From positions 94,844 through 158,843 of the forward strand of contig CALLJK010000009.1 in the NCBI GenBank assembly GCA_938091745.1: a stretch of DNA of 64,000 bases, in the 5' to 3' direction. The notes beneath the pieces were generated by a model. It was not told where the DNA came from. It searched no databases and saw only the letters and a list, made by a program, of their open reading frames with translations. This stretch comes from Candidatus Bipolaricaulota bacterium (lineage in GTDB: Bacteria > Bipolaricaulota > Bipolaricaulia > RBG-16-55-9 > DRXL01). Positions 85 through 2,721 of this stretch are shown piece by piece (the first letter of the stretch is position 1; every line of letters starts with the position of its first letter). The translations under genes were made by a program, and so were the position numbers.

Positions 85-2721
85 ATGCCAAGAATCGCCA
101 AATATGACTTCAAGAAGATCGAGAAACGCTGGAAGGACTTCTGGGACAGACAGGGGTTCTTCAAGGTCGACACGGCCAACACCGAGAAGAAGTTCTACTA
201 TCTCAATATGTTCCCGTACCCATCAGGGGTCTTGCACGTGGGCCACGGGCGAAATTATATCATTGGGGACGCATTCGCCCGCTACAAGAAGATGCAGGGC
301 TTCAATGTGCTGAATCCCATGGGATTTGACGCGTTCGGCCTGCCCGCAGAAAACGCAGCCATCGAGAACAAGACCCACCCCCGTGATTGGACCATTGCTA
401 ACATTGAGGGCATGAAGAAGCAGTTTCGGGAGTGGGGCATCGTCTACGACTGGGACCGCGAGATCAGAACCTGCGAGCCTGACTATTATAAGTGGAACCA
501 ATGGCTCTTCTTGCAGTTCTATAAGCGGGGCTTAGCGTATCGTGCCGCAGCCGTAGCCAACTGGTGCCCCGGCTGCGAGACCGTCTTAGCGAACGAGCAG
601 GTCATTGATGGCCGTTGCGAGCGCTGCGACTCTCTTGTCGAGAAGCGCAAGCTCACCCAATGGTTCTTCAAGATCACCCAGTATGCCGAAGAATTACTCA
701 AAGACTTGGAGAAGCTGGAGCACTGGCCGGAGCGCGTCAAGAAGATGCAATATAATTGGATCGGGCGCAGTGAGGGCGTCGAGATTGACTTCGGCGTTGA
801 GACCTCTCCCCCAGCCCCTTCCCTAAAGCGGGAGGGGAGTTCCCCCTTCCCTTTAGGGAAGGGGGGTAGGGGGTTAGGTCCTCTCAGAGTCTTCACGACT
901 CGCCCAGATACGATCTTTGGCGTGACGTTCATGGCTATCGCGCCGGAGCATCCGCTCGTCGAGGAGTTTCTCGCTCATGAGCAAGACCCACAGAAACGCG
1001 CCCAGATGGAGGCATTCGTACAAAGAGTGCTCCAGCAGGGCGAGATCGCCCGCAGCGCCGTCACCGTCGAGAAAGAGGGCTTCTTCACAGGACGCTACGC
1101 CATCAACCCCGTGAATAACGAAAGAGTCCCCATCTATATTGCCAACTATGTCTTGATGGAGTACGGCACCGGGGCGATCATGGGTGTGCCAGCCCATGAC
1201 CAACGCGACTTCGAGTTTGCTAAAAAGTACGGGCTTGAAATCCGAAGGGTGATCGAGAGCGACCAGAGCAAGGGCGAGCTGACAGCAGCGTTTGAGGGCG
1301 AGGGCTGGCTTGTCAACTCCGGGCAGTTCAATGGGCTGTCCAGCCGCGAAGCGTTCCGCAAGATCGGGGAGTTTTTAGAATCTAAGGGGCTGGGACGCTT
1401 TGTCGTCAAATATAAGCTGAGAGACTGGCTCATCTCACGCCAGCGCTATTGGGGAACCCCAATCCCCATGATTCATTGTGAGCGTTGCGGGATCGTGCCC
1501 GTGCCCGAAAGCGAGCTGCCCGTGCTGCTCCCTGATGTGCCGTTCATCGGCAAGAAGGGGCTCGCAGAGATCCCCGAGTTCTATCAGACGACCTGCCCGC
1601 AATGTCACGGCCCTGCCAGACGTGACACCGACACGATGGACACGTTCGTCGATTCGAGTTGGTATTTCTTACGATTCGTCTCGCCGCATGAGCAGACACG
1701 GCCGTTCGATCCCGAAGCCGTCAACAGATGGCTTCCGGTCGATCAGTATGTGGGTGGGGTGGAGCACGCGATCTTGCACCTGCTCTACTCACGATTCTTT
1801 ACGAAAGCCCTGCGCGATATGGGCTATCTGAAGTTTGACGAGCCATTTGCGCGGCTCTTCACCCAAGGGGTGATCGAGCATCTCGCGTATCGCTGCCCTC
1901 AGCACAATTGGATTCATCCCAGCGAGGTCAAGGAGGGCAACAAGTGCCCCCACTGCGGGCGCGAACTCAAAGTAGATCTGCATAAGATGTCCAAGTCCAA
2001 GCGCAATACGATCTCGCCCCAAGACGTGATCGACCAATACGGAGCTGACACAGAAAGATTGTACACGCTCTTCATGGGGCCGCCGGAGAAAGATATCGAA
2101 TGGACAGACGAGGGCGTGCGTGGGAGCTTCCGCTTCTTGAATCGCGTCTGGAATCTCGTGCTCTCCCAGGCGCGCAAGCTCACCGACGCCGGGGAGCTGA
2201 ATCCAGCTCAGTTCACCGAGCGCGAGCGCAAAGTCTGGCAGAAGCTCCATCAGACAATTAAGTCTGTCACTGAAGACATCGAGCAGTTCCACTTCAACAC
2301 GGCTGTTTCAGCGATCATGGAGCTGACCAACGAGCTGACAGACTACGTCAGCGAAAACCCAAAGAAGATCAACAAAGCGCTGGTGAAGCGCGCGTTAGAA
2401 GAGTTGGTCTTGATCTTATCGCCGTTTACGCCGTTTATCTGTGAAGAGCTGTGGAGACGTCTGGGACACGACGACGCTGTGCTGGAGCAGCGCTGGCCCA
2501 GCTATGATCCCCAGGCACTGCACGCGGCGGAGCGCGAGATCGTTATCCAAATTAACGGGAAGGTACGAGATCGCCTTACCGTCCCTGCGGAGATCAGCGA
2601 AGATCGAGCTGAGCTGGAGAAGCGCGCGCTGGCGCAGATCCAATCGCGCTTGGACGGCAAGCAAGTCGTCAAAGTCATTGTCGTCCCTGGTCGACTGGTC
2701 AACGTGGTCGTGAAGGAATAA
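85..2721 (+). CDS. leuS: leucyl-tRNA synthetase
   Basis: 878 aa. Class I aaRS HIGH-type motif ([15 protein letters not shown]), KMSKS (KMSKSKRN) and a conserved TTRPDT editing-domain segment. Shine-Dalgarno-like sequence upstream. Confidence 0.95.
806..889. repeat. GC-rich palindromic repeat element inserted in frame in leuS (variant of the CCCTCACCC/GGGAGAGGGG family)
   Basis: cccttccctaaagcgggaggggag ... cccccttccctttagggaaggggggtagggggttagg. It adds ~28 aa ([29 protein letters not shown]) between conserved GVEIDF and VFTTRPDT. Confidence 0.55.

Follow-up and report, generated by a model that had tools for sequence, protein, structure and literature searches.

The window analysed here, a stretch of 64,000 nt from contig CALLJK010000009.1 of a Candidatus Bipolaricaulota bacterium, carries the essential genes leuS, purD, priA and uvrC, as well as a purH gene followed by one for a HAD hydrolase (NCBIfam assignments). 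The proteins nearest to those of the window carry the names Candidatus Bipolaricaulota or Acetothermia, in keeping with this host. Dispersed among these genes are five GC-rich palindromic elements of 42-101 nt, four of which lie in frame within leuS, purD, priA and uvrC, while the fifth is situated between purH and the HAD gene (Table 1). The original prediction, which was made from the letters of the window, had placed five copies at these loci, and all of them were found within a few bases of the coordinates it gave; the boundaries used here were drawn from comparisons of filled and empty alleles. It had further regarded the elements as a mobile or recombinogenic palindromic family that is tolerated, or selected for, as loops of housekeeping proteins. 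Tolerance in frame is supported by filled and empty alleles, by dispersed copies and by the location of the inserts at loops and linkers, and selection for the loops is not, as discussed below.

The five copies stand out from the remainder of the window. A scan for perfect hairpins (arm of at least 8, loop of 3-14) returned six distinct hairpins with arms of at least 10 bp, of which the five with a polypyrimidine left arm are exactly the five reported sites and the sixth, at 19290-19323, is purine-rich. The window contains 13 occurrences of the block GGGNGAGGG, compared with an expectation of 2.06; none of 100 shuffles reaches this count, and 10 of the 13 fall within three of the five copies. 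When folded as single-stranded DNA, all five copies fold better than their shuffles, with z scores between -2.8 and -5.6 (leuS -4.5, intergenic -2.8, purD -5.6, priA -4.1 and -4.2, uvrC -3.4). A scan of the whole window at Rfam gathering thresholds returned one tRNA only, and no described RNA family covers the elements. An assembly artefact is ruled out by the same inserts in independent assemblies (P0121/P0122; the P0001 cluster of two; relatives from NCBI, JGI and Logan).

Filled and empty sites in the host genes

The clearest case is purD. Among 27 aligned PurD orthologues, a discrete segment of ~25 aa is present in the window protein and in four relatives (P0002-4 and P0010), and absent from equally close relatives (P0005-9; 84-86% identity, 417-420 aa) and from distant orthologues. 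The T. thermophilus PurD has 8 residues at the site, compared with 35 in the window protein. In an AlphaFold2 model of the window PurD, the mean predicted local distance difference test score is 87.8 and falls below 50 at residues 356-381, which adopt no secondary structure, and the insert is predicted to be a disordered loop of the C-domain. Two other PurD orthologues differ in their own ways. In P0021, a short peptide unlike that of the window, VGANGRSPLQ, is inserted in another loop of the protein and resembles the translation of another GC-rich palindromic repeat family, and P0016 has an aberrant C-terminus ending in GSPSSPSPLLT.

Presence and absence are equally discrete at leuS and priA. 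The gain in leuS is ~22-25 aa, with a shorter version at the same site in the relative L001 and none in L004; the T. thermophilus LeuRS has 5 residues there against 27 in the window, and the site is a hairpin at the N-terminal edge of the editing domain. The gain in priA is 18 aa, at a site where the segment ranges from 4 to 39 residues across 32 aligned orthologues and where the DNA is filled in L129 and empty in L128. This insert directly precedes the strand that leads into the Walker-A motif, and the alignment to E. coli PriA begins right after it. At uvrC the situation is different: the net gain over most orthologues is only 4 aa (TRGG), and the copy mostly takes the place of a variable linker that was already there, ahead of the solved RNase-H-like domain. 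Among UvrC orthologues, P0243 has 20 extra residues at the same point and P0257 has 17 nearby; at the DNA level, the flanks of the window copy enclose a larger nested version in L126, and the site is empty in L127 and L002. Alignment to orthologues thus upholds the proposed insertion into host proteins for leuS, purD and priA, but not the notion of an inserted loop in every host, because the uvrC copy is barely an insertion. All four sites map to loops or linkers of the respective proteins.

At the fifth locus, purH and the HAD gene overlap without a spacer in L001 and L004 (CATTGAAGCTC), and the intergenic copy splits them in the window. The G-rich right end of this copy places a GAGG 6 nt before the second ATG of the HAD gene, at 9835, and judging by this spacing only, it may serve as the ribosome-binding site of the gene.

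Close Bipolaricaulota relatives, at 80-86% identity, lack the inserted segments entirely, and the same segments are not carried by unrelated genomes. An ancient conserved protein loop is ruled out by the empty alleles, together with nucleotide identity between unrelated loci.

Reading-frame preservation, another feature of the original prediction, was borne out at all four host genes, whose open reading frames (ORFs) are open and conserved downstream of the insert. This is not an automatic property of the elements. Three of the intragenic copies have stops in 3-5 of their six frames (one frame is open in the purD copy and three each in the leuS and priA copies), and in-frame survival thus reflects selection after insertion. 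Occupancy of genes, on the other hand, needs no special preference, since ~0.90 of the window is coding and four of five copies in genes is the expectation for unbiased insertion. In-frame copies also occur elsewhere, in a betaproteobacterial metG and a cyanobacterial menD (both Pfam-confirmed). The latter, in a Leptolyngbyaceae cyanobacterium (L083, ~2717-2739), is a BoxC-like element (..SPLPQGEGLG..) that separates the N-terminal from the middle TPP domain of a menD-like ThDP enzyme. A count of long ORFs (at least 200 codons) in other phyla, which spanned 60% of elements and 85% of random positions, was discarded as an intragenic measure because GC-rich genomes give long spurious ORFs.

Direct evidence for dispersal comes from the Bipolaricaulota relative L127 (Logan SRR16588181), in which a full-length copy of the leuS element occurs at 6485-6562, with 91% identity across 79 alignment columns and reversed in orientation, between the genes for V-ATPase subunits I and c. 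The end of this copy, ACC-TAA, supplies the stop codon of the upstream gene. The presence of such a copy at an unrelated locus shows that the element is a discrete moving unit. Gain and loss at the individual sites are also apparent. Filled and empty alleles of purD and priA are intermixed on neighbour-joining trees built with the insert masked, and partial remnants persist in relatives, namely IAPGGEGQV and EGVRAKGEV at priA and KGERV at the purD of L004, an allele that still has GC.CTCA and GGGGAGAGGG. Together, the intermixed alleles and remnants indicate that the elements were lost repeatedly and were gained at each site once or more.

The DNA of the inserts is better kept than the peptides they encode. 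The four arms of the purD element (~40 nt) are 97-100% identical in three genomes among which the identity at purD third codon positions is 0.55-0.62. In a DNA alignment with L001, L002 and L004, all four arms are common to three purD orthologues and the loops between them are unrelated. Spacers have diverged as well. Near-invariant arms amid such diverged third positions are therefore either constrained or renewed, and the encoded peptide is not conserved between orthologues.

This pattern bears on the suggestion that the elements are kept for a benefit to the host, be it H-DNA (triplex) or hairpins that pause ribosomes or polymerases, an effect on mRNA stability, the supply of ribosome-binding sites, or useful Pro/Ser/Gly loops. 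Arm conservation far above neutral expectation and very stable predicted hairpins would agree with such a role, as would the GGAG-type sequence that the intergenic copy puts before a HAD gene now uncoupled from purH. However, the elements are patchy at every site, with equally close genomes doing without them, the inserted peptides vary in both length and sequence between orthologues, and the PurD insert is predicted to be disordered. Experimental data on the related E. coli motif point both ways, as its triplex was shown in vitro but neither promoter nor terminator activity nor a triplex in vivo was detected (PMC4666352). A host benefit is thus considered very unlikely as the main explanation. 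The clause of the original prediction by which the loops might be selected for fares no better, as patchy presence and inner sequences that differ between orthologues point to tolerance rather than to a benefit at the protein level.

Anatomy and family membership of the elements

Two types of terminus enclose the elements. Type 1, ACCTAACCCCC...GGGGGAGAGGT, is found in the leuS copy (inverted), the intergenic copy and the uvrC copy (truncated), and type 2, GCCCTCACCCC...GGGGTGAGGGC, in the purD and priA copies. Between the termini, the building blocks are C-rich runs of 9-11 nt (CCCTCNCCC, CCCCTCCCC, CCCCTTCCC) and their G-rich complements, arranged as a hairpin with one or two extra arms. A single consensus, with outer arms CCCTCACCC/GGGTGAGGG and core CCCCTCTCCC..GGGAGAGGGG, had been proposed for all five copies; it describes the intergenic, purD and priA copies but not those of leuS and uvrC, which constitute a second subfamily (ACCTCTCCCCCAGCCCCT...) with 87% identity over 38 nt. 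The variant blocks CCTCTCCC, CCCCTTCCC and CCCCTCCCC are used by the priA, leuS and uvrC copies, and the arm variants distinguished are GGGAGAGGG, GGGGAGGGG and GGGAAGGGG.

The inner hairpins are interchangeable, as the window and L126 copies of uvrC have common flanks and different inner hairpins. Dispersal is also visible within the window, where positions 9750-9807 of the intergenic copy are 91% complementary to positions 36491-36548 of the priA copy over 58 nt. A triplex requires blocks in C-G-G order, and the leuS, intergenic, purD and priA copies have them so arranged.

Table 1. Location and composition of the five palindromic elements of the window
Element	Coordinates	Strand	Host gene	Position relative to host	Termini	Inner hairpins and extra arms	Encoded peptide
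leuS, composite	802-879	minus	leuS, 85-2721	codons ~240-265	ACCTCTCCCCC...GGGGGTTAGGT; in minus-strand reading ACCTAACCCCC...GGGGGAGAGGT	hairpin 1 CCCCTTCCC-TAAAGC-GGGAGGGG; hairpin 2 CCCCCTTCCC-TTTA-GGGAAGGGGG, then extra arm GGGGGTTAGG	26 residues
intergenic	9730-9830	plus		purH stop TAG (9727-9729) to HAD hydrolase gene	outer, ACCTAACCCCC...GGGAGAGGT	nested inner palindrome CCCTCACCCC / CCCCTCTCCCC-TCCGA-GGGAGAGGGG / GGGGGTGAGGG	
purD	15463-15552	plus	purD, 14407-15735	residues ~353-381	perfect 12-nt terminal inverted repeats GCCCTCACCCCC / GGGGGTGAGGGC	CCCCTCTCCC-TCAGA-GGGGAGAGGGG, then extra GGGGTGAGGG block	ALTPSSLYFPSPSEGRGERGVRVRGAGGEG
priA	36490-36557	minus	priA, 34992-37217 (minus)	residues ~222-243 of 741-aa ORF	GCCCT.A...TGAGGGC	CACCTCTCCC-loop-GGGAGAGGTG	LSSPSPLESPLPSEGEVKGVRA
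uvrC, reduced	45248-45289, possibly to 45297	plus	uvrC, 44161-46014	residues ~363-377	left ACCTCTCCCCCAGCCCC (common to leuS copy); right end GGGGAGAGTG	CCCCTCCCCG-ACA-CGGGGAGGGG	

The arms probably place the elements among repeats that have been known, as BoxC or PIT, since about 1992; the E. coli element was reportedly described by Bergler in 1992 and Hoyne in 2000. The same family is also called TM_ECO, and its consensus, an intrastrand triplex motif, is CCCTCNCCC-N3-6-GGGNGAGGG-N3-GGGNGAGGG (Holder et al. 2015, PMC4666352). It has 23 copies in E. coli K-12, all of them intergenic, and the motif occurs 3610 times in 262 proteobacterial genomes. The E. coli motif forms a triplex in vitro, none being detectable in vivo, and has no promoter or terminator activity. 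It has been tied to local hypervariability and instability, for which slippage and repair were proposed, and its origin was described as unknown (PMC4666352).

The window was searched for the three-block pattern with one mismatch allowed. With the second loop relaxed to 3-8 nt, three matches were obtained against none expected, namely the intergenic copy on both strands and the purD copy once. The strict published consensus is matched in the Bipolaricaulota relative L002, at 9259-9293. More broadly, when one genome of each species was scanned for CCCCTCTCCC-N3-14-GGGAGAGGGG, matches came from at least 120 genome stretches, which belong to Chloroflexota, Proteobacteria, Cyanobacteria, Planctomycetota, Acidobacteriota, Gemmatimonadota and Bipolaricaulota. 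Among the matches listed are 139 hairpins, of which 104 have exactly one extra arm, as does TM_ECO, and 2 have both, as do the nested copies of the window. Further copies of the window elements were also found in L127, L029, L002 and L004. The family therefore extends well past the five copies, which is what the original prediction would require.

On this basis, the five elements are most likely members of BoxC/PIT/TM_ECO, that is, a coding-tolerant variant of a known and widespread family. They share with it the 9-nt blocks CCCTCNCCC and GGGNGAGGG in the order C-arm, loop, G-arm, G-arm, the occurrence of single and "palindromic" arrangements, conserved stems with variable loops, a multi-copy, dispersed distribution (five copies in 64 kb) and local variation in presence between close relatives. 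They differ in that four of the five are in frame in essential genes, as opposed to the exclusively intergenic E. coli copies, in their second loop of 5-7 nt instead of 3, in the extra outer termini (ACCTAACCCCC...GGGGGAGAGGT or GCCCTCACCCC...GGGGTGAGGGC) and in the phylum of their host.

Resemblance to two other classes of coding palindrome can be assessed in the same manner. A likeness to Rickettsia palindromic elements (RPEs), as originally suggested, is confirmed insofar as both are short palindromes inserted in frame in housekeeping genes, at permissive positions compatible with the fold, and both also occur between genes. The RPEs, reportedly described by Ogata et al. in 2000 (cited in PMC1779305), are AT-rich, 100-150 bp in length and known only from Rickettsia and its relatives. 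By comparison, the window elements are GC-rich, shorter at 42-101 nt and presumably unrelated in sequence, with blocks common to many phyla and a host in Bipolaricaulota; the two are analogues, not relatives. The palindromic amphipathic repeat coding elements of Mollicutes are described as horizontally distributed, intragenic tandem repeats of surface proteins (PMC2996958). They resemble the window elements in being coding palindromes that can be read on either strand and in their horizontal distribution, and they are unlike them because the latter are single insertions in cytoplasmic housekeeping enzymes.

Short dispersed palindromes with inverted termini also have the general look of repetitive extragenic palindromic (REP) sequences and REPINs, which are moved by a REP-associated tyrosine transposase (RAYT; an IS200/IS605-like Y1 transposase), or of classical miniature inverted-repeat transposable elements (MITEs) derived from insertion sequences. 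Terminal inverted repeats are indeed present and are perfect over 12 nt in the purD copy. Nevertheless, no convincing target-site duplication or common target sequence was found at the four sites compared with empty alleles, nor at the L127 copy. The two REP superfamilies are defined by a GTAG or CGTC end tag (PMC3733652), and neither tag stands at the termini of any element, the only GTAG being internal to the leuS copy. No transposase or RAYT match was obtained in the handful of window ORFs scanned, a scan that was not exhaustive, the DNA covered being the window and ~125 kb from relatives, and the gene that these repeats flank in other genomes encodes a DUF559 protein instead of a RAYT. An origin from REP/RAYT or from classical MITEs is accordingly regarded as extremely improbable.

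DUF559 endonuclease genes and a candidate partner

The gene in question was encountered next to BoxC-like elements in several genomes. In an uncultured betaproteobacterium (L012, CAVPKE010000004.1), a single ORF of 913 codons contains, by Pfam, the catalytic and anticodon-binding domains of MetRS, a DUF559 domain and a C-terminal tRNA-binding domain. The DUF559 domain is complete and lies in frame within this metG, at ~2100-2650, with a BoxC-like element on each side. Such elements also stand on both sides of DUF559 genes in L028 and L102, and the 3' flank in L102, ACCCTCTCCCCCAGCCCCTCCCCC..GGGGGAGGGG, is comparable to ACCTCTCCCCCAGCCCCTCCCC..GGGGAGGGG at position 45248 of the window. A GGGAAGG/GGATGGGGG variant of the arms is common to DUF559 loci and the leuS copy. 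Even ycjD, the DUF559 gene of E. coli K-12 (L130, NC_000913.3 1351039-1351760), ends with ...RSPSP-stop inside a degenerate BoxC hairpin; the canonical BoxC TM_ECO #9 lies ~170 nt downstream, and between the two are a partial duplicate of the 3' end of ycjD and then GGGTTAGGGG.

The association was also approached from the gene. A DUF559 alignment built from repeat-flanked genes, including the YcjD RSPSP tail, served as the query, and the 80 metagenome loci that matched it best were inspected for arms. Arm motifs lie within 120 nt of the gene upstream at 53 of 78 loci, downstream at 57 of 76 and on at least one side at 64 of 74. There are 14.0 of them per kb in the vicinity of the gene and 0.28 per kb at distances above 300 nt, an enrichment of 50-65-fold. 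Perfect hairpins, with a background of 0.055 per kb, are polarized with respect to the gene, with 33 upstream that have the order C-loop-G-G and 38 downstream that have C-C-loop-G. The downstream hairpin starts at a median of 33 nt before the end of the stop codon, such that the DUF559 ORF runs into the 3' repeat. Finally, the two ends of the same gene resemble each other more than they do those of other loci (median local score 20.5 vs 10.5), the true partner, compared as its reverse complement, ranking first at 23 of 71 loci, and this match per locus identifies the ends as terminal inverted repeats of one unit. In an isolate, Deinococcus proteolyticus (pDEIPR03; L212, 120408-121507), C-rich/G-rich arm hairpins of reversed polarity stand at both ends of a DUF559 gene, and outside of them is a further 15-nt inverted repeat, GGGCCAGCGTTGCTG / CAGCAACGCTGGCCC, which suggests a larger unit in this phylum. 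Plasmids as a general vehicle are ruled out, as DUF559 was found on 41 of 72,556 plasmid records, mostly chromids or mislabelled chromosomes. The link to DUF559 is absent from the account of Holder et al. (PMC4666352), and no published connection between DUF559 or ycjD and BoxC was found in the literature searched, a limited collection.

The reading considered probable is that the window elements are non-autonomous, MITE-like members of BoxC/PIT/TM_ECO that are filtered for frame after insertion, whose arms are constrained and for which DUF559 is a candidate partner. Under this scheme, the elements would insert without avoiding genes, and purifying selection would spare those copies that settle in loops or inter-domain linkers, lengthen the gene by a number of bases divisible by three and can be read without a stop codon. 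Read in this way, the C-rich arm would be translated to Pro/Ser/Leu and the G-rich arm to Gly/Glu/Arg, resulting in a disordered loop. The peptide would be a passenger, the constrained entity being the DNA (or RNA) sequence of the arms, which could be maintained through recognition by a trans-acting protein or through repeated gene conversion between copies. With less certainty, the trans-acting partner may be the DUF559 (YcjD-like, Vsr-fold PD-(D/E)XK) endonuclease, which is proposed because these motifs flank DUF559 genes of several phyla as terminal inverted repeats that co-vary. Breaks made by the nuclease at or near the structures would be repaired from another copy, spreading whole cassettes as well as solo ends, and copies would be lost through slippage deletion driven by the hairpins. 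DUF559 as the trans-acting partner is plausible but unproven.

A broader proposal may be put forward tentatively. The BoxC/PIT/triplex repeats might trace back to a pan-bacterial selfish DUF559 cassette, as its terminal inverted repeats or as solo derivatives, and such ends, or at times the entire cassette, could settle in frame in essential genes, in a nuclease-driven analogue of REP/RAYT. The proposed logic is the same in both systems, with a single-copy nuclease or transposase gene between inverted copies of an otherwise dispersed short palindrome. In contrast, the flanked gene here would encode a PD-(D/E)XK DUF559 endonuclease and not a Y1 HUH transposase, and REPs are extragenic.

A number of observations weigh against a DUF559-associated mobile family. 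No copy in the window matches the strict N3 second loop of the published consensus. Classical transposition is not supported, there being no target-site duplication at the filled and empty pairs, and the identical arms of orthologous copies could stem from independent re-insertion and not from constraint. Searches by tblastn and hidden Markov model across ~190 kb of Bipolaricaulota DNA (the window with L001-L005, L029 and L126-L129) returned no DUF559 gene, and a Neisseria DUF559 gene is without clear arms. The query, which included the P/S tail of YcjD, may have inflated the downstream count, the upstream figure being unaffected. In the literature searched, DUF559 is not recorded as acting on such DNA as a nuclease.

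Some of these points also fit with spread and homogenisation by host recombination and replication errors alone, through microhomology-seeded gene conversion, slippage and a switch of template at hairpins, with DUF559 as a frequent cargo or a preferential neighbour. The lack of target-site duplications at every compared site and of a DUF559 gene in the ~190 kb agrees with such a process, and the GC.CTCA and GGGGAGAGGG retained by the empty L004 purD could be seeds of microhomology or the footprints of deletion. The slippage and repair that Holder et al. linked to local instability of the motif belong to the same class of mechanism (PMC4666352). What makes this explanation unlikely is that the same 9-mers recur in Proteobacteria, Cyanobacteria, Chloroflexota, Deinococcota and Bipolaricaulota, which calls for a shared sequence-specific factor or horizontal transfer, and that the DUF559 ORF reads into its 3' repeat and has ends that co-vary per locus, the signature of a unit.

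If the DUF559-associated reading is correct, BoxC/PIT/TM repeats would be confined neither to intergenic DNA nor to Proteobacteria and Cyanobacteria, and essential proteins of compact genomes would be remodelled by repeats, as RPEs do in Rickettsia. This would bear on annotation, orthologue alignment and protein evolution, since the inserts mimic lineage-specific loops and yield spurious "PSP..GEG" hypothetical ORFs. The association with DUF559 would provide the first concrete and testable candidate for mobility of a repeat family orphaned for 30 years, and would assign a function to the large DUF559 family, including the experimentally tractable ycjD of E. coli. Near-invariant arms with free loops would point to sequence-specific recognition of DNA by a protein, a possible tool, and the filled and empty sites among Bipolaricaulota metagenome-assembled genomes could be used as markers of population structure at the level of strains.

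Neighbouring features of the window

Between the HAD gene and purD, at 10697-14410, is an ORF of 1237 aa with N6_Mtase, Eco57I and MmeI methyltransferase domains, a combination that suggests a type IIG/IIL restriction-modification enzyme. The ORF is absent from the otherwise syntenic L001 and L004, indicating a recent gene insertion beside the intergenic repeat. Elsewhere, a segment of ~500 nt is present twice (28187-28702 and 29844-30369), its copies being 75-88% identical and ~1657 nt apart; the overlapping ORFs (28784-29296 and 29610-30095) have no Pfam match.

The window also contains two CRISPR arrays (46542-46991 and 58445-58691) with a common repeat, GTTTCAATACCACACTGGTTCAATTAAAAG, in 7 and 4 copies at a spacing of 66-68 nt. 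The arrays are mutually inverted, with inverted flanks of 114 nt (46958-47071 and 58367-58480) that are 74% complementary, and they bracket a block of ORFs of lower GC content (0.475) at 47356-57521, which is presumably the cas operon.

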